This document shows, in pieces, positions 40,966 through 63,030 of a stretch of DNA of 64,000 nt. The notes under the pieces were generated by a model, which had not been told where the DNA came from, ran no database searches, and saw only the letters and a program-made list of their open reading frames with translations. Where the stretch lies: contig JBOFJQ010000015.1 in the NCBI GenBank assembly GCA_051656905.1, forward strand, positions 66,861 through 130,860, in the 5' to 3' direction. Within the stretch, counting starts at the first letter, position 1. Every line of letters starts with the position of its first letter. The DNA is from Fusobacteriaceae bacterium (lineage in GTDB: Bacteria > Fusobacteriota > Fusobacteriia > Fusobacteriales > Fusobacteriaceae). Position numbers and translations under genes: made by a program.

Positions 40966-41505
40966 TTATTTAACAGAATTTGCACCTTTTTCAATTGCTT
41001 CTTTGTTCAATGGAACAAATTTAGCTTTATTTTCACCAAATACTTTAGGAAAAGCATCTAATATAGATTGAGGAGCAACAACTGGAGACTTTTCAAGCAT
41101 AGCACCTAGCATAACCATGTTAGCTATTTTTAAGTTTCCTAAATCATTTGCAATGTCATTAGCTGGAATATAATATATTTCAATATCAGTTCTTGAAGGT
41201 TTAAAATCAATTAAAGATGAATTGATAAATAATTTTCCTCCAGATACTAATGAATCTTGGAATTTAAGTAAAGATGGTAAATTCATAGCTACAACTATTG
41301 TTGCATCATTTGTAATAACAGGAGATCCTACTGGCTTGTCTGAAACAACTACAGAACAGTTAGCTGTTCCTCCTCTCATTTCAGCACCATATGATGGACA
41401 CCATGAAACTTCTTTATTTTCAAGCATTCCAGCATAAGTTACAAGCATTCCAAGAGACATAAGTCCTTGTCCACCAAATCCAGCACATATAATTTTATCA
41501 GTCAT
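40966..41505 (-). CDS. 2-oxoacid:ferredoxin oxidoreductase, gamma subunit
   Basis: 179 aa with the GFGGQG motif. Confidence 0.85.
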   Translation of the reverse strand: MTDKIICAGFGGQGLMSLGMLVTYAGMLENKEVSWCPSYGAEMRGGTANCSVVVSDKPVGSPVITNDATIVVAMNLPSLLKFQDSLVSGGKLFINSSLIDFKPSRTDIEIYYIPANDIANDLGNLKIANMVMLGAMLEKSPVVAPQSILDAFPKVFGENKAKFVPLNKEAIEKGANSVK

Positions 41506-42242
41506 TATTTAACCTCCTTCTTATTTCCTAGAGGATAGAAAGGAATCATATTCTCTTCTAACCATTTTAAAGAGTCGATTGGAGTTATTCCCCAGTTAGT
41601 TGGACAAGTTGAAAGAACTTCAACGATTGAGAAACCTGTTCCGTTAATTTGGTTTTCAAAAGCTTTTTTTATAACAGCTTTAGCTTTTCTAACAGCTATA
41701 GGATTGTGAACAGAAACTCTTTCAACAAAAGTAGCCCCATCTAAAGTCGCTAACATCTCAGACATTCTAATTGGTGAACCTGCAACAGCAGTATTTCTTC
41801 CAGATTGACATGTAGTAGCTTTTTGACCAGGAAGAGTTGTTGGAGCCATTTGTCCACCAGTCATTCCATAGATACAGTTATTAACGAATATAGTAGTTAT
41901 TTTTTCCCCTCTAGCAGCAGCATGAATAATTTCAGCAGTTCCGATAGAAGCTAAATCTCCATCACCTTGATAAGTAAATACAACTTTATCAGGTAAAGCT
42001 CTTTTTATTCCTGTAGCAACAGCAGGAGCTCTTCCGTGACCAGCTTGTTGCATATCACAGTTAAAGTAGTTATAAGCTAGAACCGCACATCCAACAGGTG
42101 CAACTCCAACAGTCTCTCCTAAAACACCTAACTCTTCTAAAACTTCTCCAACTAGTCTGTGGATAATTCCGTGAGTACATCCAGGGCAATAGTGAGTTTC
42201 TTTTTCAGTTAATCCATGAGTTCTCTGAAAAACAGTAGCCAT
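41505..42242 (-). CDS. 2-oxoacid:ferredoxin oxidoreductase, beta (TPP-binding) subunit
   Basis: CPGCTHG and GDGD...N TPP motifs. Confidence 0.9.
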
Positions 42243-43300
42243 TATTTACCTCCTAAAATTTCTTTTGCTTTATTATAAATTTCAGTTGGAGTTGGAATTA
42301 CTCCACCAGTTCTACCAAAGAATGAAATTTCATGTTTACACTCTGAGTATAATTTGATATCTTCTACCATTTGTCCCATACTCATTTCAACAGTTAAAAT
42401 TTTTCTTCCTGGCTTCAAAGTGCTTAAAGCTTTTTTAGGGAATGGCCATAATGTAATTGGTCTAAATAAACCTACTTTATATCCTTCCTCTCTTAATTGG
42501 TCTACAACATTTCTAACTATTCTTGAAGTTGTTCCATATGCAGCGAAAACCATATCAGCATCTTCACAAAGGTATAACTCAGCTCTTTGCTCTTTCTCTT
42601 CAATTTCTGCATATTTTCTAAATAAATGGTGGTTATGTACTTCTAAATCTTCAGCAGCAAGATATAGAGAATTTATAACGTTAGGTTTTCTTTCACCTTT
42701 TGTACCAACAGTAGCCCAAGAAGATTTGTCTTTTTCAGCTCTAGGTTTTACATTGTCAAATGAAACTGGTTCCATCATTTGTCCAATAAGTCCGTCAGCT
42801 AAAAGCATAACAGGAGTTCTATAGTGATCAGCAAGATCAAAACAATCGATAGTTAAATCTACAGCTTCTTGAACAGAAGCAGGAGCGTAAGAAGGAACTC
42901 TGTAGTCACCATTACCTCCACCTTTAACACACATATTATAATCTGATTGAGCAGCTTGGATTCCCCCTAAACCAGGTCCACCTCTCATTAAGTTCATAAT
43001 AACACCTGGAACTTCAGCTCCAGCCATATAAGTTATTCCTTCTTGTTTAAGAGCTATACCTGGAGAAGAAGAAGATGTTAAACATCTAGTTCCTGTACCA
43101 GCAGCACCATAAAGCATGTTTATAGCAGCAACCTCTGATTCAGCTTGAACAAAAGAGCCACCAGCTTTAGGTAAAGCATGTGATAAATACTCTGGGATTT
43201 CATTTTGAGGAGTTATAGGGTAACCAAAGAAACACTTACAACCAGCAACAATAGCTGCTTTTCCTATAGCCTCATTACCTTTCATTAAAATTTTAGCCAT
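42242..43300 (-). CDS. 2-oxoacid:ferredoxin oxidoreductase, alpha subunit
   Basis: 352 aa, [10 protein letters not shown] motif, translationally coupled to the beta subunit. Confidence 0.9.
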
Positions 43301-44423: not shown

Positions 44424-45566
44424 CTAATTGTATAAAGTAATTAAAAATTCTATGATAGTAAGGCCAGATTCTGAAGATTTGAAATTAATGTTATTTGAAT
44501 TACCTCCGCCTTTTACATCATATTTAGTTTTTAGTTCAGATAAGATTTTTGTACAATCAACTTTAGAAGATGAGATAGAAAAATTACTATCTGAGTAAGT
44601 TACTAGAAGATATTCTAAATCATTAGCTAAAAATGATTTTTTTACAAAGTCATTAATTTCACGAGTTTCATCTATAAAAAATAGGTTTAATTTTCCAATT
44701 TCAGGGATAGTAAGTATTTTTTTAGGGTTTAATATAAGATCTTTAAATATTAAATTAGAGTATTTGATTTCGAGCTCTTTTTTTTCTTTTTCAACTCTTT
44801 TTTTATCCTCTATATTTTTATCTATCATAGCAATTAAATTTTCAGGTTGGCAACTGAATTTAACACCTAATTTACTAATAATATCGTGTTTGAAATTGTA
44901 ATCTATAATAGCTTTATTTCCAGATATAAAATAAAATCTAGTATAAGTAGATTTTATTCTTTCATAGCCTAAAACCTTAAAAACTCTGATATCTTTAATA
45001 TTTTTTACATGAAGTCCAGCACAAGCGTTAAAATCTTCAGGGAAAGTACTAAGGATTCTTACATCACCTTTTATTTTATCTGGAATATTTTTTCTATCTC
45101 CCATAATAGGTTGAGCCTCTTCTAAACTGCATATTTTTTCAATAACTTCAAATCCAGTTTTAATTTTTAAGTTTACCTCTTCCTCTATTGTTTTTACCAT
45201 TTCAGCAGTAACGTCACTTACATCAAAATCAAGTGTACAGTAATTTTCAGCCATTCTGAATCCTACAGTTCTCCAACCATATTTTAAAAATGCTATAGCT
45301 GAAAAAACATGTTCCCCAGAATGATTTTCTCTGGCATCATCTCTTCTAATAGGATTAATAGTATATTCATACTCTCCTATTTCTAGAGGGGAATCTATAA
45401 TGATATCTTTGTCTAAAACTTCAACAATATTAGCTTTTCCAATAGTTCCTAAATCTCCAAGTTGTCCACCTTTACCATTGGGATAAAGCTCTTCACCTTC
45501 TAAATATTCAAAAGATACTTTATAGTTTTTTTCACATTTTTCACAATTTAAAATTCTTAATTTCAT
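44424..45566 (-). CDS. AlaX-L type alanyl-tRNA editing protein
   Basis: Zinc motifs HSGEHVFSA (HxxxH) and CAGLHV (CxxxH), plus a C-terminal DHHA1-like GGG segment. Confidence 0.7.
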   Translation of the reverse strand: MKLRILNCEKCEKNYKVSFEYLEGEELYPNGKGGQLGDLGTIGKANIVEVLDKDIIIDSPLEIGEYEYTINPIRRDDARENHSGEHVFSAIAFLKYGWRTVGFRMAENYCTLDFDVSDVTAEMVKTIEEEVNLKIKTGFEVIEKICSLEEAQPIMGDRKNIPDKIKGDVRILSTFPEDFNACAGLHVKNIKDIRVFKVLGYERIKSTYTRFYFISGNKAIIDYNFKHDIISKLGVKFSCQPENLIAMIDKNIEDKKRVEKEKKELEIKYSNLIFKDLILNPKKILTIPEIGKLNLFFIDETREINDFVKKSFLANDLEYLLVTYSDSNFSISSSKVDCTKILSELKTKYDVKGGGNSNNINFKSSESGLTIIEFLITLYN

Positions 45567-45900: not shown

Positions 45901-45986
45901 GCCTGGGTGACGAAATGGTAAACGTAGTTGACTCAAAATCAATCGGTGGTAACACCTTGGGGGTTCAAGTCCCCCCTCAGGCACCA
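45901..45986 (+). tRNA. tRNA-Leu (anticodon CAA), CCA encoded
   Basis: I folded the cloverleaf by hand: acceptor gcctggg/ctcaggc, anticodon loop cuCAAaa, long variable arm, T arm ggggg-ttcaagt-ccccc. Confidence 0.93.
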
Positions 45987-45988
45987 AC

Positions 45989-47224
45989 TTATTCATCTTT
46001 AGATTCTAAAGATGTTTTTTTATTTTCTGCTATTTTTTCTAGAATCTTCCCTGTTTTTAGTATATTTTTATTAGAGAGGTGTGTGTAAGTATCCATGGTA
46101 GTATTTATAGTAGAGTGTCCTAGCCACTGTTGAATTTCTTTCATGTCAAGTCCTGCATTGTGAAGCATAGTTGCACATGAGTGACGCAGATCATGGAATC
46201 TAATATCTTTAAAATTATGTTTTCTAATTATTGTTTTAAAGTGTTGTGTAATGTAATTGGGCTTTATAAGGTCACCCATTTCATTTACACATATATTATC
46301 TAAATATTTTTTATTATAAGAGTTTCCAAATTCTAAAATATATTTAGATTGTTTCTCTTTTATCTTTATCAGTAGTTCTTTTAGTTGTGGAATTAAATCT
46401 AATGTTCTATGACTTTTTTTATTTTTTGTTCTTTCTCTATTTTCATACATCTTCTTGTTCCCATCAGAAAACTCTACAATTGTATTTTCAATAACAATAC
46501 AATTATTTTCATAGTCAACACTACTCCATTTAAGCCCTAGTGCTTCACTTCTTCTCAATCCATAAAAAGCAGCGAGGTAAACAGGTAACTCTATATAAGT
46601 TCCTTTTACTACAAGTAATAGCTCATGTATCTCACTAGGAGTTAATGTTTTTGCTATATATTGCCTTTTCTTAGGCTTTTCGACTAAATCCGCTTGGTTA
46701 TTTAAAACCAAGCCTTGTTTTAAAGCCGTTTGTAGAGCCTTTCTAATATTTGCATGGTAATGTAAAACTGTATTTGCACTGATGCCTCTCTCATTTAAGT
46801 GGTAGTTGTAGAACTCTTGTAAGTGAGTAGCTTTCAATTCTTTTAATCCTAAGTTTAGATCTAAAAAGTATGGAATAACATTGTTCTCTATAATGTGTCT
46901 ATATCCAGTATAAGTATTTTTTTCTAAAGTTGATTTAACCGAATTAAGCCAAATTTTTAAGAAATCAGTGAAGAGGATAAAACCCTCTTCTTTTTCTGAA
47001 AGCTTCTTTGTCCATTCTAACCTAAAATCATAAAGCATTGAGTTAGCCTCTGCCAAGTTTTCTTTGCTCTTTGTTTTTGTTTTATCATCAACTAGTAATT
47101 TTGTAGATTTTGATTTTAGTACTTGTTTCTGAGTAATTGGATCATAGAAATTTATAACAGTATGATAAAATCCGTTCTTTTTTCTTAAGTATCCTGCAAT
47201 TAGTTTATCTTCATTTTTTTTCAT
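45989..47224 (-). CDS. int: tyrosine recombinase / phage integrase
   Basis: 411 aa with a SAM-like N-terminal core-binding domain, GLRRSE, HDLRHSCATML and a HxxxxxTxxxYTH C-terminus. Confidence 0.93.
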   Translation of the reverse strand: MKKNEDKLIAGYLRKKNGFYHTVINFYDPITQKQVLKSKSTKLLVDDKTKTKSKENLAEANSMLYDFRLEWTKKLSEKEEGFILFTDFLKIWLNSVKSTLEKNTYTGYRHIIENNVIPYFLDLNLGLKELKATHLQEFYNYHLNERGISANTVLHYHANIRKALQTALKQGLVLNNQADLVEKPKKRQYIAKTLTPSEIHELLLVVKGTYIELPVYLAAFYGLRRSEALGLKWSSVDYENNCIVIENTIVEFSDGNKKMYENRERTKNKKSHRTLDLIPQLKELLIKIKEKQSKYILEFGNSYNKKYLDNICVNEMGDLIKPNYITQHFKTIIRKHNFKDIRFHDLRHSCATMLHNAGLDMKEIQQWLGHSTINTTMDTYTHLSNKNILKTGKILEKIAENKKTSLESKDE

Positions 47225-47428: not shown

Positions 47429-48136
47429 TTAATTCTCCTTTTCAAATAAATTTAAATTATTTTCATTAATTATAAGTTCTTCTTTTTCTTTTATAAAAAG
47501 TTCAATCTCTTCCAGTTCTCTTTTTAAAGATTTGATATTACTTTTATATTGTGAAATATTATTTGAATTTTTGATTAATTTAATTTTATATTTTAAATCT
47601 TTAAATTCGTTTATGATTTCATCATTTTCAACATCTATTATTTCAACTTCTTCTACCTTAATATTATTCTCTATCAATCCAGTATCAAGTAACCAGTATT
47701 TGATTTCCTCTATTGATTTAAGTCCTAATTCAGCAACTTCAATTACTCTTTGAGGTTCTGACAACTTAGATGTCAGCATCTTTACAGCAGGTATACTTAA
47801 AGAACTAACCCAAAGGTGATGTTCTGGAACTTGAATAAAGAGTTCATATCTTTTTAATAGTTCAGAAACTTTGTCTTTATTGAGACCAATGTGCTGATAC
47901 CATTGCATGAATGTCCCATCTTTCTTTAAGATAAGAGAAACATCATAAAGCTCTTTACAGATTTCAAAAATATTTTGAGAATAAGCTTTGAAGGTTCTGA
48001 AAATAATCTCTTCTTTTTTTATAACTTCTTCTATATCTCTTTTTTCAATTTCGCAACTTCCGAAATCGAAGGTAGATTGATACTGAGGTTTAACTTGACC
48101 TTTTAGTCTGTCTAAAGCAGTCATTTTTTTATTCAT
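47429..48136 (-). CDS. hypothetical protein, possible ParB-like partition adaptor
   Basis: The call rests on position only: it overlaps the parA stop. The C-terminus is a coiled coil. I recognise no motif. Confidence 0.4.
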   Translation of the reverse strand: MNKKMTALDRLKGQVKPQYQSTFDFGSCEIEKRDIEEVIKKEEIIFRTFKAYSQNIFEICKELYDVSLILKKDGTFMQWYQHIGLNKDKVSELLKRYELFIQVPEHHLWVSSLSIPAVKMLTSKLSEPQRVIEVAELGLKSIEEIKYWLLDTGLIENNIKVEEVEIIDVENDEIINEFKDLKYKIKLIKNSNNISQYKSNIKSLKRELEEIELFIKEKEELIINENNLNLFEKEN

Positions 48137-48902
48137 TGCAAATCACCTCAATAATTTTTAAAAATATTTCTCTAATCTCTTCTGTTTTAACAGACTTGCT
48201 TTCCCAAACTGATTTACCTTTATCTATTAGCTTTCCTATTTCTCCTGATTGGCTGATAGGCATTGTAAGTAAAATTCCTGTTCCATCTAAGATATCAACT
48301 AACGAATCATAAATTTCTTTTTCTTTAGCTGTTCTAGTAAACCTATTTGGAATAATAGCTTTCACCTTTTTTTTATCAACTTGATTAAGTAAATTTACAA
48401 TTGATGCAGTTGTAACGTTATCTAAAAATGTTGGAATAACTATTTCATCTGCTAACTCTAAAAAGTCTTTATCCAAAGAAAGTGTTGGAGTGGAATCAAT
48501 TATAATATACTCAAATCTTTGTTTTAAAGTTTCTATAAAGTTTATTAACTTTCCTCTTGATGATGTTTTAATATAGTCTGCCATCAAAGGAATGAAATAT
48601 ACATTTTCTCTAATTGAAATTATTTCCCCATCTTTTCCATTAATCCACTCTTCTAATCCACTGTTAAATTCAACATTTTCTTTTCCTGCATAGTGTAAGA
48701 TATTATTTTGAGAATCGGTTGTAAGTATTAGAATTTTTTTGCCTGTTTTTAATTGTAAAGCATGTGCAATTTGGAGAGTAATCCATGATTTTCCAACTCC
48801 GCCTTTATTATTTTTAATTAAAATTATTTTTGCTAGTTCGTTACTTAAAGGCTTAAATTCTCTACAATCAAAGATTGTTTCTACTAGTTCTTTGTATTTC
48901 AT
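48129..48902 (-). CDS. parA: ParA/Soj family partition ATPase
   Basis: Deviant Walker A NNKGGVGKSW and Walker B IIIDSTP. Confidence 0.85.
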   Translation of the reverse strand: MKYKELVETIFDCREFKPLSNELAKIILIKNNKGGVGKSWITLQIAHALQLKTGKKILILTTDSQNNILHYAGKENVEFNSGLEEWINGKDGEIISIRENVYFIPLMADYIKTSSRGKLINFIETLKQRFEYIIIDSTPTLSLDKDFLELADEIVIPTFLDNVTTASIVNLLNQVDKKKVKAIIPNRFTRTAKEKEIYDSLVDILDGTGILLTMPISQSGEIGKLIDKGKSVWESKSVKTEEIREIFLKIIEVICNE

Positions 48903-51349: not shown

Positions 51350-51802
51350 TTATTTTTTTGATATTGCTTTTAAAGCATTTTCTAATATTAATTTTTCTTC
51401 TATCCCCCTACTTTCATTGCCAAGCTTTTCTCGGCAACATCTAATGTAATCAATTAAAAATATTCTTGTCTTATCATCACACATTTCAAAGTAATCTTCT
51501 TTTTCAAAATTTTCTAATAATTTTTTATGAAATACTTTGTGAAAACTTAACATTTCATCAAAGATAGTTTTTAGTTCATCACTAAAATTATTATCTTTAA
51601 TAGTTGTTTCAATTCTTTTAAAAAATCCAGTTTGCACTGAGTTATGCCAAATAATATGTCCTCTTAAGTCATCTCTCCTTTTATCATCTAATTTATCTAC
51701 TGTTGCCATATATGATAAGTGTTCTTCAACTGTAGTAACACGCACCTGCATGTTCATGCTTCTTTCAAGCTCTTTAGAACTTGCTGTTTCAGTTCTTCCC
51801 AT
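51350..51802 (-). CDS. hypothetical protein
   Basis: 150-aa ORF, second gene after the cro-like gene. Confidence 0.4.
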   Translation of the reverse strand: MGRTETASSKELERSMNMQVRVTTVEEHLSYMATVDKLDDKRRDDLRGHIIWHNSVQTGFFKRIETTIKDNNFSDELKTIFDEMLSFHKVFHKKLLENFEKEDYFEMCDDKTRIFLIDYIRCCREKLGNESRGIEEKLILENALKAISKK

Positions 51803-52233: not shown

Positions 52234-52743
52234 ATGAGCATTAATGAAACAAGTGATATTCCTGAAATAGATAGAAAAAAATTAGGAAATTATATAGATG
52301 AAATAAGAAAAGAAATTTCTTTTGGATTTAATCAGTTATCATTAAAAAGTGGTTTAAATGCGAGAACTTTAAATGAAATATTAAATGGAAATAGTAAAAG
52401 AACAAACCCATATCACTTACAAAAATTAGGTTTTGCTTTAAGAATAGATTATAAAGAGCTTTATAAAATAGTAGGTTATTTATCAGAAGATGATTTTAAA
52501 GAGGCTGATTTGTTAAAAAAAGAAGTTTTAGAGTTAAAGACTAAATTAACAGAATGTGAAAATAAAGTAAACGTAATTAATCATGGAGAAATGTCGGGAA
52601 ACCAAATTTTGGGTAATGTTAATGATTCTGAAATAAAAGTTATCAAAGGGGAAAAAGTGAGCAATATAGATACCTCTGGACTGACAGAAGAGCAATTAAA
52701 GAATTTGGAACAATATATTAAGTTCTTAAGAACACAGGGGTAA
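52234..52743 (+). CDS. cI-like XRE-family repressor (no S24 peptidase domain)
   Basis: HTH FNQLSLKSGLNARTLNEILNG, a coiled-coil C-terminal half, and a GGGAGGAG RBS. Confidence 0.72.
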   Translation: MSINETSDIPEIDRKKLGNYIDEIRKEISFGFNQLSLKSGLNARTLNEILNGNSKRTNPYHLQKLGFALRIDYKELYKIVGYLSEDDFKEADLLKKEVLELKTKLTECENKVNVINHGEMSGNQILGNVNDSEIKVIKGEKVSNIDTSGLTEEQLKNLEQYIKFLRTQG

Positions 52744-52768
52744 AATTAGGGGGAGAATTTAGTTAGTT

Positions 52769-52936
52769 ATGTCTAAAGAAGAATGGAGTAAAGTATTATT
52801 TTTAGAAGAGGAAATAAAAAGATTAAATGAAATAATTATGGGGAAGAATATTATAAATAATGGAGATAATACTGGGGTTCAGATATTTGGGGATATCGTG
52901 AATTCCAGTATTATTATCTATAATAGGGAACGTTAG
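52769..52936 (+). CDS. 55-aa protein paralogous to the repressor C-terminal tail
   Basis: My own translation gives MSKEEWSKVLFLEEEIKRLNEIIMGKNIINNGDNTGVQIFGDIVNSSIIIYNRER. The RBS is AGGGGGAG. Confidence 0.4.
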   Translation: MSKEEWSKVLFLEEEIKRLNEIIMGKNIINNGDNTGVQIFGDIVNSSIIIYNRER

Positions 52937-52970
52937 TTAAAAAAATTTAATATACAGGGGGAGTTAAAAA

Positions 52971-53942
52971 ATGAATGAGTGGGAAAAAAGCAATGAGGGA
53001 ATAACAAGTAAAAAATGGTTTGTAGTAATAATGCTTCTTTTTTTTACACCAGTAGGAATATATTTTATGTGGCGTAATAACAGTTTTTCTAAAGTAGCTA
53101 GAATTATAATTACAGCAATTATGGGATTATTTTTTGTTGGTATTATGGCAGTTAGTTCAGGTACTTTAAATGACGAAAAAGGACAAAAAGTAATTAAATC
53201 TAATAAAATTGAAGAGGTTAAAGAAGAAAAAATTGATAAAGTTCAAGATGAAAAAGATAAGATTGAACAAGTAAAAAAAGAAATAAAAAAAGTAACACTT
53301 GATTATGAAGCAAGACATTTAGATTTATGGATGGAAATGGCAAATAATATGAAAAAAAGTGATTTACAAAAGACATATGAATATGCGAGTAAGTCACTAG
53401 AACGTGTAAAAAAAATCTATTTAGATACTCTTATGATTAATTTTGAAAAAACAGGGAATGTTGAGTTTGATAATAGAGTAGAAGCATATAAAGATAAATT
53501 AAATACTGCTTATTACTTAAAGAAAGATTCTTTAGAAAAACTTCTTTTAGCACTTGAAGATACAAGTTCTATTAAGAGAGCTAATGAAGTTAAAGAAGCA
53601 ATGGAGAAAGCTAGTAATTATTGGACAACTTTTCAATTTAGTACAGCGATAATGACTATTACAGATGATGATATTAAGTCTTATAATGAACAGAAAGAAA
53701 AAGAAACAGCTATTAATGAAGAAATAAAAAAAGAAGTTGCGAAAGAGAAAGTGGTAAAAGAAGTAGTTAAACCTAAAAAACTGTCATATAGCGAAGATGA
53801 TGTTTATACTCATTTAATTTGGAAAGGTTATAGCGGTGAAAGATCTTTAGAGAGATTTAAAGAGGCAAATGGAATGCCTGCAAATAAGGTTATAAATGAA
53901 AAAGTATTAAAAGCTTTAGGAATGGAAATAAAGTATAAATAA
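52971..53942 (+). CDS. membrane-anchored coiled-coil protein with PG-binding-like C-terminus
   Basis: Two N-terminal TM helices, a K/E-rich helical body, and the tail VYTHLIWKGYSGERSLERFKEANGMPANKVINEKVLKALGM, which resembles PG_binding_1. Confidence 0.6.
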   Translation: MNEWEKSNEGITSKKWFVVIMLLFFTPVGIYFMWRNNSFSKVARIIITAIMGLFFVGIMAVSSGTLNDEKGQKVIKSNKIEEVKEEKIDKVQDEKDKIEQVKKEIKKVTLDYEARHLDLWMEMANNMKKSDLQKTYEYASKSLERVKKIYLDTLMINFEKTGNVEFDNRVEAYKDKLNTAYYLKKDSLEKLLLALEDTSSIKRANEVKEAMEKASNYWTTFQFSTAIMTITDDDIKSYNEQKEKETAINEEIKKEVAKEKVVKEVVKPKKLSYSEDDVYTHLIWKGYSGERSLERFKEANGMPANKVINEKVLKALGMEIKYK

Positions 53943-53980
53943 GAAGTTAATAAAAAATTAATATACAGGGGGAAAAAATA

Positions 53981-54685
53981 ATGGGATTTATCGGTTTTGC
54001 AATAGTAATAATTTTTATAGGGGCAATTTGTATGCTCAGAATGATTTCTAAAATGAAAAAAAGAATAGAAGGGGAGTTATTGAGCTTTGCAGATAAAGGG
54101 TTTGGTAAAATATTCGTAGGGGATGATGGGAAATCAGGTATTGGAGCTAATCTTGATGATTATAAGCTAGTTTTAGTTGAACTTAAAGGGAAGGAAATCT
54201 TTTCTAATATTATAGATTATAAAGATATAGTTTCTGTAGAGTTAGTACAAAACGGAACAATTGTAAGCAAGACATCAAAAAGTTCTCAACTAGGAAAAGC
54301 AGCTGTAGGAGGTGTTTTATTTGGTGGAGCTGGAGCAGTTATCGGTGCTTTAAGTGGAAATAAAAAAAATGTTGAAAATGTTAGTAAAGTACAAGCTAAA
54401 TTAACTATTCAAGATTTGAAAATGCCAATTTTTAATGTTACATTTATGGATGCTAATTTTAAGAAGGATGGTTTTTTTCATAAAGCTATGATTCAAAAAG
54501 CAGAAGAATGGATTGGAATAATAAGTGCAATGATAAAAAAGGCAGAGCAAGACATAATTTATCAATCTCAGGGATCTAATACAGCATCTAATTATGTTGA
54601 TGAAATAGAAAGATTGCATTCTTTAAAAGAAAAAGGAATAATAACTGAAGAAGAGTTTAATAAGAAAAAAGCAGAATTATTATAA
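53981..54685 (+). CDS. membrane protein with glycine zipper and C-terminal SHOCT domain
   Basis: N-terminal TM, glycine zipper AAVGGVLFGGAGAVIGALSG, and SHOCT-like tail IERLHSLKEKGIITEEEFNKKKAELL. Confidence 0.6.
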   Translation: MGFIGFAIVIIFIGAICMLRMISKMKKRIEGELLSFADKGFGKIFVGDDGKSGIGANLDDYKLVLVELKGKEIFSNIIDYKDIVSVELVQNGTIVSKTSKSSQLGKAAVGGVLFGGAGAVIGALSGNKKNVENVSKVQAKLTIQDLKMPIFNVTFMDANFKKDGFFHKAMIQKAEEWIGIISAMIKKAEQDIIYQSQGSNTASNYVDEIERLHSLKEKGIITEEEFNKKKAELL

Positions 54686-54729
54686 AAATAAATAATATTA
54701 TTAATAAAGAAATTATTTTAGGGGGAAAG

Positions 54730-55614
54730 ATGGGGATAAATAATCAATTTGAGGTTTTTTGTAATAATATAAAAATTCAAAAAAGTAATGTTGATAAAAT
54801 AGCAAATCGTTATAAAACAATAACAAAATTATTGAATAAAGAATACTATTCTACAGAGTCTGATACTGCACATAGCCTATATGTTGGATCGTATGGGAGA
54901 GACACTGATATTCATACAAGTGATATTGATATTTTATTTTGGCTTCCTTGGGAGAAATATACGCAGTATAAGAATTATTTATATAATGGACAATCTGCAT
55001 TAATTCAAGATGTAAAAAATGTAATAAAAAAAACATACCCTTCATCAGCTATACGTGGGGATGGACAAGTTATTATTATTGATTTTTATGATGGAATGAA
55101 ATTTGAAATTGTTCCTTGTTTTGAACTTAGTGATAAGTCATTTCTTTACCCTGATACAAATGAAGGAGGTAGCTGGAAGTATACTTATCCAAGAAAAGAA
55201 ATTGAAGAAATTAGAAATGAAAACTTCTATAAATGTAACAAAAATTTAAAAAGGCTATGTAGAATGGCTAGAGCTTGGAAAGAAAAGAATTCTGTTAATA
55301 TTTCGGGATATTTAATAGATACACTAGCGTATAAATTTTTAAAAGGATGGTCATATAAGAATTATTCTTATATGTTTTATGATTGGATGATTCGTGATTT
55401 TTTTTCATATTTAAAGGAGCAAAATATATATCAACAATATTGGGTAGTTCCAGGAAGTAATAAGTATGTTTACCGTTATGGACAGTCATTTGAATATAAA
55501 GCATTACTAGCATTTAATTTAGCTGTAGAAGCAATAGAATATAATACGAATAATTGTCCTTATACTGCTACAGGAAAATGGAAAGAAATTTTTGGTGCAA
55601 AATTTCCGTATTAA
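54730..55614 (+). CDS. SMODS-type nucleotidyltransferase (CD-NTase-like)
   Basis: Pol-beta NTase signature GSYGRDTDIHTSDIDILF, third acidic strand KFEIVPCF, and GGSWKYTYP and LKRLCRMARAWK segments as in SMODS proteins. Confidence 0.75.
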   Translation: MGINNQFEVFCNNIKIQKSNVDKIANRYKTITKLLNKEYYSTESDTAHSLYVGSYGRDTDIHTSDIDILFWLPWEKYTQYKNYLYNGQSALIQDVKNVIKKTYPSSAIRGDGQVIIIDFYDGMKFEIVPCFELSDKSFLYPDTNEGGSWKYTYPRKEIEEIRNENFYKCNKNLKRLCRMARAWKEKNSVNISGYLIDTLAYKFLKGWSYKNYSYMFYDWMIRDFFSYLKEQNIYQQYWVVPGSNKYVYRYGQSFEYKALLAFNLAVEAIEYNTNNCPYTATGKWKEIFGAKFPY

Positions 55615-55627
55615 GGGAGGTAAAAAA

Positions 55628-56269
55628 TTGACAAAGTCAGATTTTCTTAAATTAATAGCACAGAAAGCTTATGATGTATTATATGGTGCTAAATTAAATT
55701 TTTCAACATATGAAATAGTAGTAAAAGTTCCTGGGTTTTTAAATGTTATTTCACTAAGTGTCGGAATCTTTTCATTAGTTATAGACTATTTTTCTAACAA
55801 AATACTTTCAGCTATTGTTTTGATATTAGCAATCATTTCTTTATATATTTCAAAATATGAAGAAGAAATTAATTCTTATCAAGAAACAGGGGAAAAATTA
55901 ACTATTATTCAGAATAATTTAAAAAAGTTATATAGTGAAGTTAAATCTAAAGCTGATAATGAAAGATTTAAAGATTCTGAAGAAATGAAAGAATATAATA
56001 AACTAGACTCTGAATTTTTACTAATAAAGCAAAAAAAGCAAATAGTATTTAGTGGTTGGAGAGCTCATGTTATGATTTTTGGACAGCATCAAATTGACTG
56101 GATTGATGAACAGTTAAAATTTAAATTTTGGAAAGATAAGATACCCGCAACTTTTAAATTATTTATGTGGATGTCTATAGTAGTAATTATAGTAATAATT
56201 ACTACTATAATTTTTTCTGATTCTAAAAGTTCAGAGCAATGTTTAATGTTGTTTATAAATAATTTATAA
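55628..56269 (+). CDS. SLATT-like transmembrane effector
   Basis: TTG 55628 lies 7 nt after GGAGG. The protein has an N-terminal YGAKLNFSTYEI motif, two closely spaced TM helices, a coiled coil and a third C-terminal TM. Confidence 0.6.
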   Translation: MTKSDFLKLIAQKAYDVLYGAKLNFSTYEIVVKVPGFLNVISLSVGIFSLVIDYFSNKILSAIVLILAIISLYISKYEEEINSYQETGEKLTIIQNNLKKLYSEVKSKADNERFKDSEEMKEYNKLDSEFLLIKQKKQIVFSGWRAHVMIFGQHQIDWIDEQLKFKFWKDKIPATFKLFMWMSIVVIIVIITTIIFSDSKSSEQCLMLFINNL

Positions 56270-56306
56270 AGTAGATAATAGAAATATAGAGTCTTTGGAG
56301 GAATTT

Positions 56307-57377
56307 GTGTTTGATAATATAATAGATAAGATAAAAAAAGTTGGCGGAGAAGAAAAATATTGGCTTTTTAGAGCTGGAACAAAAGCAAAATATTTTGACA
56401 ATTTTTTTTATAGTAGAAAAATAGGATTAGCTTGGGATAAAATAGATGATATATCACAAACTTCGAGTCTTTTAACTCTTACAAATGAAGTTAAAAGGTT
56501 ATATCCAGAAGAAAAAAGGCCAGGGAATATATATAATAAAATTTATTCTTTTATTCACGAAATGAAAAATGGAGATTTTATTGTAATGCCTGATACAGAA
56601 AAGAAAAGAATAGCTATAGGAAGACTAATAGATGATAATGTTGAAATAAAAAAAATAGAAGAACAATTATCTCTTATGCCTATTAAAAGTCAGGAGAATT
56701 ATGATGAAGAGGAAAAAACAGATCCTGGTGTTATAAATAAATATAGGAACATAGAGTGGATTAAAGTAATGATAAAAGAAGAACTAACAGCAGAATTAGA
56801 ATTATTTTTATTTGCACCTCATAGTATATCTGAATTATCTAAAAGTGCTCAATATGAAATAAACAAATTAATATATGACTGTTTTATAAATCAAGATAAT
56901 ATATACTTGAAATATAAAGTTGATACAAGAACAGATATATTAGCGGATGATATATTGATGTTTTATAAATTGATTGACTATAGCGAGAAATTATCTAATA
57001 TATTAGAAGAAGAACCTAGAAAGATAAAAACAAAAATAAATGTAGCGTCACCAGGAGATATTGTTGCAATTGGTGGAGTATCTATTGGTTTGATATTAGC
57101 TTTAGGATATGTATTCAATGGCGGAAAAATTTCAATAAAAATTGGAGAAAAATTTAATTTTAATGCAGAAGGAGGAACACCTCTACAAGAATTTTTTAGT
57201 AATAGGCATAAAAATAAAATGGAAAAAATGAAATTCCAAGCAAGATTAGAAGAGTTGGAAGAGTTAGAAAGAAAATTTAAGAATGAAATAACTCATGAAG
57301 ATATAAAAAAAATGGAAAAAAGCTTAGAATTAAAAACACCTAAAATAATAGAAGAACAAAAAGAAAAGGAAGATTAA
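56307..57377 (+). CDS. hypothetical 356-aa protein: soluble N-domain, one TM near residue 260, charged coiled-coil tail
   Basis: GTG 56307 lies 4 nt after GGAGG (the ORF track starts at TTG 56295). I recognise no family. Confidence 0.55.
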   Translation: MFDNIIDKIKKVGGEEKYWLFRAGTKAKYFDNFFYSRKIGLAWDKIDDISQTSSLLTLTNEVKRLYPEEKRPGNIYNKIYSFIHEMKNGDFIVMPDTEKKRIAIGRLIDDNVEIKKIEEQLSLMPIKSQENYDEEEKTDPGVINKYRNIEWIKVMIKEELTAELELFLFAPHSISELSKSAQYEINKLIYDCFINQDNIYLKYKVDTRTDILADDILMFYKLIDYSEKLSNILEEEPRKIKTKINVASPGDIVAIGGVSIGLILALGYVFNGGKISIKIGEKFNFNAEGGTPLQEFFSNRHKNKMEKMKFQARLEELEELERKFKNEITHEDIKKMEKSLELKTPKIIEEQKEKED

Positions 57378-57580
57378 ACTCTTCCTATTTTTATTTCAAG
57401 ATTATTTATTTTATTATCATTAATTCTTATGAAATTAAAAATCACTATAAGAGAAGATAAACCCTTTATAACATCTTGCCAAATAACAGATATGTTAAGA
57501 TTATTAAAAGGAATATAATATATTAAAGAAAAGCAAAGAAAAACAAAACTAAATATAGAAAAATATATGGTAATTTTCAT
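57374..57580 (-). CDS. 68-aa two-TM protein, convergent
   Basis: AGGAGG lies 9 nt upstream. MKITIYFSIFSFVFLCFSLIYYI is followed by a second TM. The stop overlaps the 56307-57377 stop by 4 nt. Confidence 0.45.
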   Translation of the reverse strand: MKITIYFSIFSFVFLCFSLIYYIPFNNLNISVIWQDVIKGLSSLIVIFNFIRINDNKINNLEIKIGRV

Positions 57581-57759
57581 TAAGCATTTCCTCCTTTTTT
57601 TATTATATTAATGACAAATTATAGCTTTATATCTTGATTAAGTCAATTATAAAAAAAGAATGTCAAGATATTTTTGTAAGTAATAAAAAAAATATTTGAT
57701 GTTTTATATACTTATGTTATACAATATGTTTGATATGAAAATTTGGGGGGTAAAATTAA

Positions 57760-57915
57760 ATGCAAACATTTCCAAAAGAAATAGAAAATATTTTAAATGA
57801 CATAGGGAACTCATTAGTTAGCGAAAAAAAAGTTTCAATCAAAATTGAAAAAGAATTAAATGGAAATTTTTTTGTAACAATAGCACCAACAAAAATGGTT
57901 AGTTTAAACAAATAA
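57760..57915 (+). CDS. hypothetical 51-aa protein
   Basis: My own translation gives MQTFPKEIENILNDIGNSLVSEKKVSIKIEKELNGNFFVTIAPTKMVSLNK. The RBS is GGGGGG. Confidence 0.3.
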   Translation: MQTFPKEIENILNDIGNSLVSEKKVSIKIEKELNGNFFVTIAPTKMVSLNK

Positions 57916-58094: not shown

Positions 58095-58139
58095 CACCCT
58101 TATCTAGTCATAAAAGATTAGATAAGGGTGTTTTTTTTT
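58095..58139 (+). terminator. strong rho-independent terminator immediately upstream of the rightward late-side genes
   Basis: 12-bp perfect stem cacccttatcta / tagataagggtg with a 12-nt loop and T9. Confidence 0.85.
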
Positions 58140-58157
58140 GTTGTCAAAGGAGAAAAA

Positions 58158-58433
58158 ATGCTAATTAGTTACAAAGATAAGTTATACAGTTCTAGCTATT
58201 TAGCAACAAAGCTAGGTCTTAAAAGTGTAAGAGAATTAAATAAAATATTAGAGGCTAAAGGTATTCAAAAAAAAGATAATGTAAGAAATGTATGGAGATT
58301 TACAGGTGATTTAGTTAACAAAGGTTACGAAAGTTTTGAAGCTAAAAAATTGCCAAATCAAAAAGAAATTTATGTTAGAAAGTTTACCTGGGATGGAATT
58401 ATAAAAATAAGACAACTTTTAGAAACAAAATAA
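58158..58433 (+). CDS. KilAC-like (antirepressor C-terminal type) DNA-binding protein
   Basis: Start at ATG 58158 after AAGGAGA. YLATKLGLKSVRELNKILEAKGIQKK...W..T..L...GY resembles KilAC domains. Confidence 0.5.
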   Translation: MLISYKDKLYSSSYLATKLGLKSVRELNKILEAKGIQKKDNVRNVWRFTGDLVNKGYESFEAKKLPNQKEIYVRKFTWDGIIKIRQLLETK

Positions 58434-59767: not shown

Positions 59768-60334
59768 GTGTTTTCTATAGGTAGGTTAGATAAGAATAAA
59801 ATCTATTCAATAAGAATAAGATATGAGCATGGAGAAAATTTAAAAGATTTAGCTTTAGAATTTAAAGTCCCTCTCATTACAATTCACAAAAGAAAAAAGA
59901 AAAGTGAACTAAAAGGCGATCCATGGGTAAAAGGTTTTAGGTCTATAGAAGGTTTTAAAGAGTTTTCACAAGATAATGAATCAGCTAAATTAAAATTAGA
60001 TATGGTCATTACAGAGAAGGCTAGGAAAGAGTTTATATCACTAGAGAGAAACATAGATAGACTTTACAGTGATAAGAATACACTGCTAATTCCTGAGGCA
60101 GAGAAAGCTTTTCAAGTGAGAGGAACAAGAATAGTTAAGCAGTTAGAACTGAGAAGGAAAATAGAAGGGATCTATACTCCAGAACAACAACTACTAATTG
60201 ATACAGCAAAGGCAACTATAAAAGTAAAAGAGAAGGATGCTGAGTTGAAGGCACTGGAGATAAAGAGTAAAGAGATAGACTATAAACTAAAAGAAGAGGA
60301 AAGCAGACATTATTTAAAAGGAGGTAATAGTTAG
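59768..60334 (+). CDS. HTH plus coiled-coil protein (regulator or TerS-accessory), start uncertain
   Basis: N-terminal HTH NLKDLALEFKVPLITIHKRKKK. The annotated GTG abuts the GGAGG, so the true start is unclear. Confidence 0.45.
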   Translation: MFSIGRLDKNKIYSIRIRYEHGENLKDLALEFKVPLITIHKRKKKSELKGDPWVKGFRSIEGFKEFSQDNESAKLKLDMVITEKARKEFISLERNIDRLYSDKNTLLIPEAEKAFQVRGTRIVKQLELRRKIEGIYTPEQQLLIDTAKATIKVKEKDAELKALEIKSKEIDYKLKEEESRHYLKGGNS

Positions 60335-60765
60335 TGAATAAGATATGTCCTAGATGTAGAAAGGTTTACTCATACAATGACAGGACTTGCCCTAACGGGT
60401 GCAGTGACAAGAGAAAGAAAGAGAGCAACAAAGTATATGACAAGGAACAAAGAGCTAATAAAGACCTCTACAACTCAAGAGAGTGGAAGCTCTTAAGAGA
60501 AGCCTGCAAGAAAAGATTTAGTGGCTTATGTATATGGAGTCTATATGCTCATGAAAGAATAGTTCATGGAACATTGACTCATCACATAGTACCTGTTGAA
60601 GATGCAGAAGATAAAGCATTAGATCCTGATAACTTAATCTATCTATCTGATACAGCTCATAGAGAGATACATGAGCTGTATAACAATGATAAAGAAGTAA
60701 CACAGGCATTACTACTTGAATATATCAAGCTATGGAATGATACAGATGAGGGAGTGGGGCTATAA
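60334..60765 (+). CDS. HNH endonuclease (packaging-associated)
   Basis: Zn ribbon CPRC...CPNGC and HNH core HHIVPV...N...HREIH, located directly before terS. Confidence 0.85.
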   Translation: MNKICPRCRKVYSYNDRTCPNGCSDKRKKESNKVYDKEQRANKDLYNSREWKLLREACKKRFSGLCIWSLYAHERIVHGTLTHHIVPVEDAEDKALDPDNLIYLSDTAHREIHELYNNDKEVTQALLLEYIKLWNDTDEGVGL

Positions 60766-60859: not shown

Positions 60860-61312
60860 ATGGGAAGAAAAGTTCCTTTAGAATTACAAAAGGGAGATTT
60901 AACAGATAAGGTAAAAAAACAAAAAGAATTAGAAGAAGCATCAGTATTTGTAGGAAATGAGCAATTGGAAAAACCTCCAGAATGGCTTATAAACGATAAG
61001 GCAATAGAGGAATGGAAAAGGCTTGTAAAAGAATTTAATAAAAAATCATTAATTAGTAATCTTGATTATAACAACTTAGGAGCTTACTGCAATTCTTTTG
61101 CTAAGTACACTGAGGTAGTAAATAAAATGGGTATGAATCTAATGATAGGAAAGACTACTAATCCTTTAATAACATTAGAACTTAAGTATTCTGATGAAAT
61201 GAAGAGGTATGGTAGCTTATTAGGGCTTACATCAGAATCAAGACTAAAGTTAGGTGGAATAAAAGCAGGAGAGCAAAATCAAGAAGTAAGCAATTCGTTT
61301 GGTGACATATGA
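60860..61312 (+). CDS. terS: terminase small subunit, P27 family
   Basis: 150 aa. PPEWL...W..L...L...L...D...L..YC and the C-terminal LGLTSESRLKL are typical of P27-family TerS. Confidence 0.8.
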   Translation: MGRKVPLELQKGDLTDKVKKQKELEEASVFVGNEQLEKPPEWLINDKAIEEWKRLVKEFNKKSLISNLDYNNLGAYCNSFAKYTEVVNKMGMNLMIGKTTNPLITLELKYSDEMKRYGSLLGLTSESRLKLGGIKAGEQNQEVSNSFGDI

Positions 61313-63030
61313 TGACAATAAGAGAAGAGCTAATTAAATATTCAGAAGAGTGTATTTATAGGGAATCAATAAATGGAAAAAAGCATATATGGGCTTGTAA
61401 AAGGTTTCTAAAAGACTTAAAAAGCGATTTTGAATATTATTGGAATGAAGAGGAAGCAGTAAAAATTGTTAAATGGTTTGAATATTTAAGACATAGCAAA
61501 GGGGTATTGGCAGGGCAACCAATAAAGTTAACGACTTGGCAAAAATTTAATCTGTGTCAAATCTATGGATGGAGAAATAAATCAGATCATAGAAAAAGAT
61601 TTAAACTAAGTTTCATAGAAGTTGGAAGAAAACAAGCAAAATCACAGATGCAAGCAGGAGTATTACTTTATGAAATGTCTGTTCAATCTACAAAGAACAA
61701 TGAAATCTATGAAACCTATTGTGCAGGAACAAAAAGAGAGCAATCCAAGATAATTTTTAATGAATGTAGAAATCTATTAACAGGAAGTCCTTTAGCTCCT
61801 AAGTTTAAATTAAAAAATACAGAAATAGTTCATATAAAAACGGGTTCTTTTTTAAAACCACTAAGTAAAGAGGATGGGAAAAAAGGAGACGGTACAAATC
61901 CTGCTGTCCTAGTATTGGATGAATATCATCAACATACAACAACAGAATTTTATGATTTAGGGTTGGGGTCTAATACAAAAGAACCTCTTCTGATGATTAT
62001 AACAACGGCAGGAGTTGATTTAAACTCACCATGTTACACCCAAGAATATAAATACTGCTCTGATATTCTTAACCCTGCCTCAGATGTTGAAAATGATAAT
62101 TACTTTATTGATATTTGTGAAATAGATAAAGATGATGATATTTATGATAGAAAAAATTGGCTTAAAGCTAATCCATTAAGAATGACATATCCAGAGGGAA
62201 TAGCACAATTGGAATCAGCTTTTAAAGTAGCAGAAGATGTTCCTGAAAAGATGGTAGCCTTTAAAACCAAATGCTTGAATATGTGGATACAAGCAAAAGA
62301 CCAAGGCTATATGGATATGGAGAAGTGGAAAAAATGCCAGGTAAAAGAGTTGCCTTATTGCATATTAAATAGACCTGTTTATGTTGGGTTTGATATGTCA
62401 GCAAAGATAGACCTTACCAGTGTAGCATTTGTTATTCCAATAATGGATGAAGGAAAAGCAAAATATATAATATTTAGCCACTCTTTTATACCAAATAGAG
62501 AAAAGTTAATGGAAAGAAAAGCAGTTGATAAAGTTCCTTATGACACGTGGGAAGAACTAGGATTTTTAACAGTAACTAACACCCCAATCGTGGACCAAGA
62601 AGCAGTTATGCAATACGTACTTGAAACTTGTAAGAAAAATAAATGGGAAATAAAGCACTTATGCTTTGATCCCGCAAATGCCTCTAAGCTAATGATGGAT
62701 TTAGAGACTAAGGGAGGATATGAGGTAACAGAGGTATTCCAGTCTCATAAATCACTTAATGAAAGTACTCAAGGCTTTAGAGAACAGGTATATTCGGGTA
62801 ATGTCTATTACTTGTATAATCCACTACTAAATTATGCAATGGGAAACGCTGTAATAAAGCAGAATAACGGTTTAATAAAAATAGATAAAGATGCAACTAC
62901 AAAGAGGATAGACCCGATAGATGCCCTGTTATGTGGTTATAAGCTATCAATGTATCATGAGTTTGAGTTCGACATAACACAATATGCAGAGGAAGATTAC
63001 TTAGATAAGCTTTATGGAGGGGGTGAATAG
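61309..63030 (+). CDS. terL: terminase large subunit
   Basis: 573 aa with Walker A GRKQAKS, Walker B VLVLDEYH and a C-terminal nuclease domain (IDPIDA). Confidence 0.92.
   Translation: MMTIREELIKYSEECIYRESINGKKHIWACKRFLKDLKSDFEYYWNEEEAVKIVKWFEYLRHSKGVLAGQPIKLTTWQKFNLCQIYGWRNKSDHRKRFKLSFIEVGRKQAKSQMQAGVLLYEMSVQSTKNNEIYETYCAGTKREQSKIIFNECRNLLTGSPLAPKFKLKNTEIVHIKTGSFLKPLSKEDGKKGDGTNPAVLVLDEYHQHTTTEFYDLGLGSNTKEPLLMIITTAGVDLNSPCYTQEYKYCSDILNPASDVENDNYFIDICEIDKDDDIYDRKNWLKANPLRMTYPEGIAQLESAFKVAEDVPEKMVAFKTKCLNMWIQAKDQGYMDMEKWKKCQVKELPYCILNRPVYVGFDMSAKIDLTSVAFVIPIMDEGKAKYIIFSHSFIPNREKLMERKAVDKVPYDTWEELGFLTVTNTPIVDQEAVMQYVLETCKKNKWEIKHLCFDPANASKLMMDLETKGGYEVTEVFQSHKSLNESTQGFREQVYSGNVYYLYNPLLNYAMGNAVIKQNNGLIKIDKDATTKRIDPIDALLCGYKLSMYHEFEFDITQYAEEDYLDKLYGGGE

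Follow-up and report, generated by a model that had tools for sequence, protein, structure and literature searches.

A DUF8426 gene closing a prophage repressor operon, and its convergent small neighbour: a predicted two-gene anti-phage module in a Fusobacteriaceae prophage

We analysed a stretch of 64,000 nucleotides from a Fusobacteriaceae bacterium (assembly GCA_051656905.1, contig JBOFJQ010000015.1, positions 66,861 to 130,860; hereafter the window) and, within it, a gene encoding a 356-residue protein directly behind a SMODS/SLATT gene pair (hereafter the target gene). The target gene is the conserved last gene of a prophage repressor (lysogenic) operon, and a gene for a 68-residue hydrophobic protein lies tail to tail with it on the opposite strand. 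Together, the two genes are predicted to form an autonomous prophage module acting in superinfection exclusion or abortive infection, a reading that we hold with moderate confidence. The membrane step of the mechanism proposed below carries much less confidence than the module itself.

The open reading frame (ORF) at 56307-57377 on the plus strand was borne out by the sequence and by the gene prediction made separately for a metagenomic contig of 98% identity (hereafter the twin), which gives the same 356-residue product. The longest form of the ORF would start at a TTG codon (position 56295, 360 residues), a codon that falls in the GGAGG Shine-Dalgarno sequence of the GTG start (Table 1). As stated in a preliminary description of this DNA, a SMODS/SLATT pair precedes the gene (Pfam SMODS, E 2.8e-46; SLATT_6, E 9.9e-56; the SMODS gene also matches the PADLOC oligonucleotide cyclase at E 2e-126), and the target gene starts 37 nucleotides after the SLATT gene stop at 56269. 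Considering that the ORF, the spacing, the hydrophobic run and the charged tail are all present, the sequence-level observation holds with small coordinate corrections; overall, what that description observed was partly confirmed, and its interpretation was partly supported.

A phage family behind repressor genes

The target protein had been regarded as an orphan, which was not borne out: it belongs to the PHROG family phrog_10226, matched over its full length (residues 2-353 against profile positions 6-363 of 369, E 6.1e-40), and further relatives were found with the family profile. The PHROG carries no annotation, its function being not assigned. An exhaustive search with the family profile returned 3019 representative clusters at E<=1e-3, with 323 at E<=1e-30, and almost all of the 150 hits listed were 320-410 residues long and aligned over nearly the whole profile; a word-indexed search gave just 9 relatives of the target protein. 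Members recovered by tblastn came from temperate phages and satellites of Streptococcus, Staphylococcus, Fusobacterium, Lactobacillus and Latilactobacillus, and from a small Bacillus plasmid. Two different queries matched 6 and 16 of 50,697 phage records. A search with the close family alignment found 3 IMG/VR loci and no related loci in the GTDB representative genomes, and megablast searches with the region gave no match in either the phage or the plasmid collection.

The survey of homologue neighbourhoods that the preliminary description had named as a check showed that the family tracks prophage repressors and not SMODS/SLATT. In each of the seven phage or satellite lineages that we opened (records phiPaco, phiGBSVK-D, SF39/IPP63, TMW 1.46 P2, Javan462 and SP276), the gene follows a cI/ImmR repressor gene of the same strand and precedes the integrase gene. 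A Peptidase_M78 (ImmA-like) gene stands between repressor and homologue in two of these cases, and in the satellite Javan462 the gene upstream of the homologue is an unannotated hypothetical. The metagenomic contigs showed the homologue directly after a gene with helix-turn-helix (HTH) and Peptidase_S24 domains, or, with overlapping start and stop codons, after HTH_3 and Peptidase_M78 genes. Homologues also occur outside prophages, beside a divergent WYL regulator together with helicase, MutH and methylase genes; one homologue is found on a small 9-kb MOBV plasmid, and in one prophage the gene stands before the terminase genes.

The prophage of the window is syntenic with those of two other loci, L007 (a Cetobacterium metagenome-assembled genome) and L011, and the target protein has 48% identity to its counterpart in both. 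Both also share the small plus-strand ORF at 57760-57915 (52-55%) and the leftward gene at 51350-51802 (41%), while the cro-like gene and the repressor (49%) are shared with L007 and the ParA-like gene (54%) with L011. The cargo slot ahead of the target gene differs between them. The window carries there (52744-56306) the SMODS/SLATT pair, a cyclic oligonucleotide-based antiphage signalling system (CBASS), L007 (3484-8000) carries SNIPE/T5orf172, GmrSD_N and HEPN_RiboL-PSP genes, and L011 (4339-8000) carries a reverse transcriptase and a protein kinase. A further, unaligned contig (L010, 239-5253) has a type III restriction-modification (R-M) system in the slot, preceded by a Peptidase_S24 fragment where the contig begins. 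Synteny with differing cargo indicates that the target gene is a backbone gene ending a variable defence-cargo slot. In agreement with this, tblastn with the SMODS and SLATT proteins of the window found the pair beside a homologue in 1 of 31 other loci, namely the 98% twin, so that the suggestion of a third SMODS/SLATT component is refuted by the neighbourhoods and by the syntenic prophages with other cargo in the slot.

We also noticed that five independent assemblies carrying the homologue P0007 (L028-L032) all break off about 24 nucleotides past its stop codon, so that a repeat or a strain-variable junction (the prophage end) may lie directly downstream in that lineage.

A DUF8426 N-domain and a C-terminal module of novel fold

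The preliminary description had likened the N-terminal part of the protein to the N-terminal modules of restriction proteins. This likeness held and can now be placed: the domain is DUF8426 (Pfam PF28530), the N-domain of the Mrr_cat nucleases that PADLOC models as PDC-S02. On the contrary, the proposed limits (residues 1-125) did not stand, as the domain spans residues ~10-190 and includes a low-confidence, poorly conserved insertion at 117-144. The PF28530 assignment of the target protein is indirect and comes from the precomputed annotation of its 98%-identical relative P0001 and of all other homologues. The PDC-S02 model PDLC04815 matches only residues 18-111 of the target protein (profile positions 3-102, E 2.7e-17). 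PDC-S02 models were matched by 96 of the 96 aligned family members, and in the seven members examined singly the match was N-terminal only, extending to about position 170 of 324-346. No named domain beyond this N-terminal part emerged when Pfam, NCBIfam and PADLOC models were run on the complete protein and on its two halves.

The link to the nucleases came from a 347-residue "restriction endonuclease" encoded on a Methylomonas plasmid (WP_196433863.1, Methylomonas sp. LL1), which was reached through a tblastn hit. Residues 19-156 of the target protein align with the first ~125 of this endonuclease (27% identity, BLASTP E 6e-13), whose C-terminal half is the Pfam domain Mrr_cat (PF04471, E 2.6e-20) and which matches PDLC04815 end to end (1-342 of 346, E 1.6e-145). 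A search with it returned more than 6400 hits, and all 120 of the 120 listed were annotated with both PF28530 and PF04471; DUF8426 is therefore an N-terminal domain common to two architectures. Both architectures conserve the signature residues W19, R22, G27, F33, W43, Y66, F82, K87-x-G89-D90, P95, R147 and W151. Mrr_cat was found neither in the target protein by Pfam nor among the families listed for the 96 members. As it is without the nuclease, the target protein is not a full PDC-S02 member; in its family, the nuclease is replaced by a different C-terminal module of novel fold. A profile search of PDB sequences with the Mrr-type relative gave no match.

The two architectures thus share a homologous DUF8426 with the same signature residues, a similar length (~345 residues for PDC-S02) and a single-polypeptide layout of presumed sensor plus effector among defence genes. 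They differ in the C-terminal half, which is a PD-(D/E)xK Mrr_cat nuclease in PDC-S02 and a non-nuclease module in the target protein, and in their genomic place, PDC-S02 genes lying within type I R-M operons and the target gene closing prophage repressor operons. At three of the four Mrr-type loci examined (Table 1), hsdS and hsdR flank the DUF8426-Mrr_cat gene, and at the fourth it stands immediately before hsdR, which suggests a fixed type I/type IV-like composite. A further difference is the convergent gene for a small membrane protein beside the target gene, found at none of these four loci.

EVE/PUA domains, which act as modified-base readers fused to type IV restriction nucleases, are analogous to DUF8426 in their N-terminal position and in the reader role proposed for it, and there is a local helix-K-x-G-D-strand-strand motif. 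The hhalign comparison of the family with four EVE domains from the PDB gave a probability of 2.5% (E 0.019, 38 columns) and an alignment limited to that motif. Weak Pfam EVE/PUA hits appeared in 3 of 96 and 2 of 96 members (E>=0.007), and Foldseek found no known DNA- or base-binding fold for the DUF8426 protein. Homology to EVE/PUA is thus not established.

The structure was modelled with AlphaFold2 (AF2). With 10 sequences the model reached a predicted local distance difference test (pLDDT) score of 70, and with 96 family sequences it reached pLDDT 86.9 and a predicted template modelling (pTM) score of 0.83. The model consists of an alpha/beta N-domain (~10-190) with a disordered insertion (117-144), followed by a C-terminal module with strands at 192-195, 198-205, 241-244 and 250-257, helices at 213-233 and 260-270 and a hairpin at 274-288, and by a tail of three short helices (291-301, 307-327 and 330-340) ending in the conserved L340-x-L-x-x-P. 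The C-terminal module has an invariant S248-P249-G250 and a near-invariant G272-G273. Foldseek comparison of both models (pLDDT 70 and 87) with the PDB gave nothing at E<=1e-3, and the sole match in BFVD was one uncharacterised family member. A hidden Markov model search of PDB sequences gave only an insignificant TatA-like hit (E 0.3) over the apolar helix, the GG hinge and the amphipathic stretch. The idea that the C-terminal module might be a degenerate copy of the N-domain, arisen by internal duplication, goes back to a single weak BLAST segment (E 0.053).

A hydrophobic helix had been described at residues 256-274. The run exists, but lies at residues 252-270 in the 356-residue numbering; 256-274 fits the 360-residue TTG form. 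It had further been taken as a single late transmembrane (TM) segment. The target protein indeed has 19 apolar residues there, yet the run is short in the family and the AF2 model splits the stretch, which makes this a weak reading. Over 157 family members, the longest apolar run peaked at 12 residues and measured 9-16 in most, and 27 of 153 members fell below the usual TM hydropathy threshold (Kyte-Doolittle 1.6). The AF2 model divides the run into the beta-strand 250-257 and an 11-residue helix (260-270). Along the family columns, an amphipathic alternating strand (252-255) gives way to a polar loop of Gly, Ser and Lys (256-259) and then to about 12 positions that are uniformly apolar (260-271, charged fraction <=0.06), followed by G272-G273 and an amphipathic hairpin. 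A helix so uniformly apolar and so poorly conserved has to be covered by something, be it lipid, an oligomer interface or the remainder of the protein. In most members its length falls short of a canonical membrane span, so that constitutive single-pass anchoring is unproven; alternatively, the helix would be buried and might become exposed on activation. The highly charged C-terminal tail was found, with 50% charged residues over the last 66 (17 acidic and 16 basic) and a helical prediction. A coiled coil had been suggested for this tail, for which the model shows the three short helices given above.

The convergent small gene and the predicted module

The small ORF overlapping the 3' end of the target gene is also called as a gene on the twin contig. 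Its putative promoter (Table 1) is the top-scoring site in a 6.8-kb scan in which the total of sites was not above the shuffled expectation, and a AAGGAGGA motif is conserved upstream of the orthologous small ORFs in L007, L011 and L027. We scored a small ORF when it lay on the opposite strand, encoded 40-100 residues with at least one hydrophobic segment, was preceded by a Shine-Dalgarno sequence and stopped between -100 and +150 nucleotides from the end of the gene. Such an ORF accompanies the family gene in 11 of 16 lineages, compared to 1 of 96 control genes (Fisher p 9.5e-11), the controls being other ORFs of at least 200 residues from 13 of the 16-lineage loci; none was present at the four Mrr-type loci. 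The small ORFs encode 55-80 residues, and their stops either overlap the family gene by 4-80 nucleotides or lie at most 30 nucleotides from it. They are found with homologues in the WYL-regulated chromosomal loci too. Between L011 and L027, a small ORF of 55 residues is kept with its Shine-Dalgarno sequence and -35 box at 53% amino acid identity, the large protein having 69%. Between the window and the twin (L022:3498-3704), the small ORF differs at 8 codons (7 nonsynonymous and 1 synonymous) and the large protein is 97.8% identical, so that the small protein may be fast evolving or under relaxed or diversifying selection. Considering these association data, the unit most likely comprises two genes. 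The earlier proposal of an independent single-gene abortive-infection effector is plausible in part: lysogeny operons and defence neighbourhoods speak for it, but apparently two genes are involved and the TM anchor is doubtful.

As DUF8426 is fused to type IV-like nucleases in R-M operons and conserves aromatic and basic residues, we infer that it would be a target-reading, nucleic-acid-sensing domain. The C-terminal module would then be a swapped-in effector, made of amphipathic strands around a ~12-residue apolar helix with a GG hinge and a charged helical tail. A short, fully apolar helix with a GG hinge and amphipathic elements suggests oligomerisation and membrane action. In such a mechanism, incoming phage DNA would be sensed, the protein would oligomerise, and it would act at the membrane, either alone or via the two-TM small protein; the tail-to-tail overlap might couple the two genes by antisense or transcriptional interference. 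In its full form, this would be an undescribed two-gene anti-phage module, widespread among streptococcal, staphylococcal, lactobacillus, clostridial and fusobacterial prophages, in which a DUF8426 reader has swapped its Mrr nuclease for a membrane-acting effector of novel fold that works with, or is controlled by, a 3'-overlapping two-TM small protein, a Rex-like switch carried by the lysogenic operon. We put this full version forward only tentatively, as less likely than not.

The comparison with lambda RexA/RexB, the abortive-infection pair of the cI immunity operon, is one of logic and would not be one of ancestry. Expression from a prophage repressor operon and the proposed logic of a cytoplasmic sensor with a small membrane protein are common to both. 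On the contrary, the Rex partner is a co-directional multi-TM channel protein and the partner here would be a two-TM protein encoded on the opposite strand, and neither a PADLOC Rex model nor a Pfam match pointing to RexA/RexB homology was found in the target protein.

Several points weigh against the module. A PDC-S02 representative of the Mrr type gave no protection against T4, T5 or T7 in E. coli B (bioRxiv 10.1101/2024.09.26.614923), the tested protein sharing only its N-domain with the target protein. DNA binding by DUF8426 is suggested by the fusion partner only, the EVE comparison by hhalign giving just 2.5%, and membrane action is uncertain considering the short apolar helix and the compact globular AF2 model (pTM 0.83). 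From one lineage to another the small proteins resemble each other little in sequence, with no PHROG or other family match, 5 of the 16 lineages are without a small hydrophobic ORF, and a convergent orientation is unusual for protein partners. Finally, defence is no more than a candidate role for the family.

The same data could also be read as two separate genes. One would encode a DNA-binding factor, soluble and cytosolic, whose C-terminal domain would serve oligomerisation and not membrane contact, for instance one that blocks replication or transcription of the incoming phage. The other would be a type-I-toxin-like or holin-like small gene, an addiction or induction-timing device with its mRNA restrained by the 3' end of the lysogenic transcript acting as antisense. 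We consider this rather unlikely, even if the single compact AF2 fold, in which strands and helices surround the apolar helix, the 27 of 153 members under the hydropathy threshold and the fast change of the small ORF are all consistent with it. So is the arrangement of the genes: small hydrophobic prophage genes that are convergent with their neighbour, overlap it at the 3' end and share a bidirectional terminator are the layout of type I toxin-antitoxin loci such as txpA/RatA, bsrG/SR4 and Fst/RNAII, which the small ORF here resembles with its overlaps of 4-80 nucleotides. However, the transcript that overlaps the small ORF encodes a 356-residue protein, the small proteins, with 55-80 residues and two hydrophobic segments, are larger than typical type I toxins, and Rfam found no antitoxin RNA in the region. 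Moreover, the small ORF follows the target family outside cI operons, at the WYL loci, and is absent from the Mrr-type DUF8426 genes, which argues for a link at the protein level.

A role in lysogeny control and not in defence, by which the protein would modulate repressor or ImmA activity, induction or excision, would explain the fixed place after cI/ImmR-ImmA. The gene lies directly downstream of repressor genes, at times overlapping their stop codons, and belongs to the conserved backbone, while the recognised defence genes vary in the adjacent slot. We nevertheless regard this role as improbable: the gene behaves as an accessory gene, being present in a small minority of phage records, it occurs without a prophage repressor on the small plasmid and in a chromosomal island and stands before the terminase genes in one prophage, and its N-domain is common to restriction nucleases. 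Very improbable indeed, and effectively refuted by the context survey, is the reading of the target protein as a sensor, regulator or second effector belonging to the adjacent CBASS. The 37-nucleotide gap, the common strand, the lack of a predicted terminator between the SLATT gene and the target gene and the same arrangement on the twin contig would agree with it. On the contrary, the one locus with SMODS/SLATT among the 31 others is the twin itself, the slot of syntenic prophages holds unrelated cargo, and Pfam, PADLOC and NCBIfam scans of the target protein gave no match to a CBASS accessory, effector or nucleotide-sensor model (Cap2/3, HORMA/TRIP13, SAVED, STING and others). SMODS with SLATT is already a complete minimal (type I) CBASS.

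The surrounding prophage and the meaning of the family

The junction of tRNA-Leu and integrase is the probable left attachment site of a prophage that runs rightwards past position 64000 (Table 1). An HNH gene followed by terminase genes is a common HNH-terminase packaging arrangement. A ParA-like gene is unusual in an integrating phage; the idea of a phage-plasmid, which came from the ParA-like genes, was withdrawn because the integrase gene abuts tRNA-Leu and the host PFOR genes. The two genes between the repressor and the CBASS genes may be further exclusion or defence cargo.

Table 1. Coordinates of the target gene, its neighbours and related loci (window numbering unless a locus is named)
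Feature	Position	Strand	Remarks
Target gene, 356 residues	56307-57377	+	GTG start; DUF8426 N-domain and uncharacterised C-terminal module
Shine-Dalgarno GGAGG of target gene	56297-56301	+	5 nucleotides before the GTG start; read in the sequence
N-domain, residues ~10-190 (PF28530/DUF8426)	56334-56876	+	PDC-S02 match, BLASTP, PF28530 annotation, conserved columns, pLDDT 80-98
Variable insertion in N-domain, residues 117-144	56655-56738	+	pLDDT 55-62; low occupancy and conservation in the family alignment
C-terminal module core, residues 191-290	56877-57176	+	Strand-strand-helix-strand-strand-apolar helix-hairpin; AF2 model mc40639779784
Hydrophobic run IVAIGGVSIGLILALGYVF, residues 252-270	57060-57116	+	Kyte-Doolittle 19-residue window maximum 2.35
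Charged helical tail, residues 291-356	57177-57374	+	50% D/E/K/R; ends in conserved L340-x-L-x-x-P
Convergent small ORF, 68 residues	57374-57580	-	Hydrophobic segments at residues 3-25 and 37-51; 4-nucleotide overlap with target stop
Bidirectional terminator-like hairpin AGGAAGATTAAACTCTTCCT	57367-57386	both	T-runs on both strands; spans the stop codons of both convergent genes
Shine-Dalgarno GGAGG of small ORF	57590-57594	-	9 nucleotides before the ATG (57580)
Sigma-70-like promoter of small ORF	57618-57646	-	TTGACT-17-TATAAT, near-consensus, 11/12 matches
cI-like HTH repressor	52234-52743	+	First gene of the rightward operon whose last gene is the target; weak Pfam HTH_26 (E 0.0027); 49% identity to the gene in repressor position in L007
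Variable cargo slot, not part of the unit	52971-56269	+	Membrane protein, PH_gly_zipper/SHOCT protein, SMODS cyclase (54730-55614), SLATT_6 effector (55592-56269)
323-residue protein	52971-53942	+	N-terminal membrane segment, charged helical region; between repressor and CBASS
234-residue protein	53981-54685	+	PH_gly_zipper and SHOCT on the twin contig; phrog_888 match
51-residue ORF	57760-57915	+	Just after the convergent pair; 52-55% identity in L007 and L011
Strong terminator	58095-58130		15-bp stem; ahead of the KilAC/ANT-like gene (58128-58433)
HNH endonuclease gene	60334-60765		Directly upstream of the terminase genes
Terminase small subunit	60860-61312
Terminase large subunit	61309-63030
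ParA/AAA_31-type ATPase	48129-48902	-	Leftward early region; 54% identity to the ParA-like gene of L011
Tyrosine integrase	45989-47224	-
tRNA-Leu(CAA)	45901-45986	+	Directly abuts the tyrosine integrase gene
Host tRNA_SAD/AlaX-like gene	44424-45566		Left of tRNA-Leu
Host PFOR subunits	40966-43300		Left of tRNA-Leu
DUF8426-Mrr_cat genes	L019:5031-6074; L113:4001-5044; L114:4001-5035; L116:4001-5044		In type I R-M operons

Parts of this picture have been catalogued already: the domain has its entry as a DUF, phrog_10226 is a PHROG of unknown function, and PADLOC lists the sister architecture among its candidates. The kind of gene, a candidate defence gene carried by a prophage and built of swapped modules, is therefore known. 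The target architecture, the fold, for which no match was found, and the small gene conserved tail to tail with the family gene appear to be undescribed so far, and no mention of DUF8426, PF28530 or phrog_10226 was found in the literature searched.

In conclusion, the CBASS pair in the window is interchangeable cargo in a variable slot, and the gene behind it is not part of the pair. The family to which this gene belongs is common in fusobacterial temperate phages and in those of Gram-positive bacteria of medical relevance, among them S. pneumoniae, S. pyogenes, S. agalactiae and S. pseudintermedius, and has the classic position of a lysogen-protecting gene, yet is without an assigned function or a known fold. 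The link between DUF8426 and Mrr offers a route into both families. Should DUF8426 recognise some feature of foreign DNA, one and the same reader would be tied in one of them to DNA cleavage and in the other to a non-nuclease effector. The convergent gene adds a concrete, testable and so far unannotated partner, of a kind that gets missed, as small convergent ORFs beside defence genes do.

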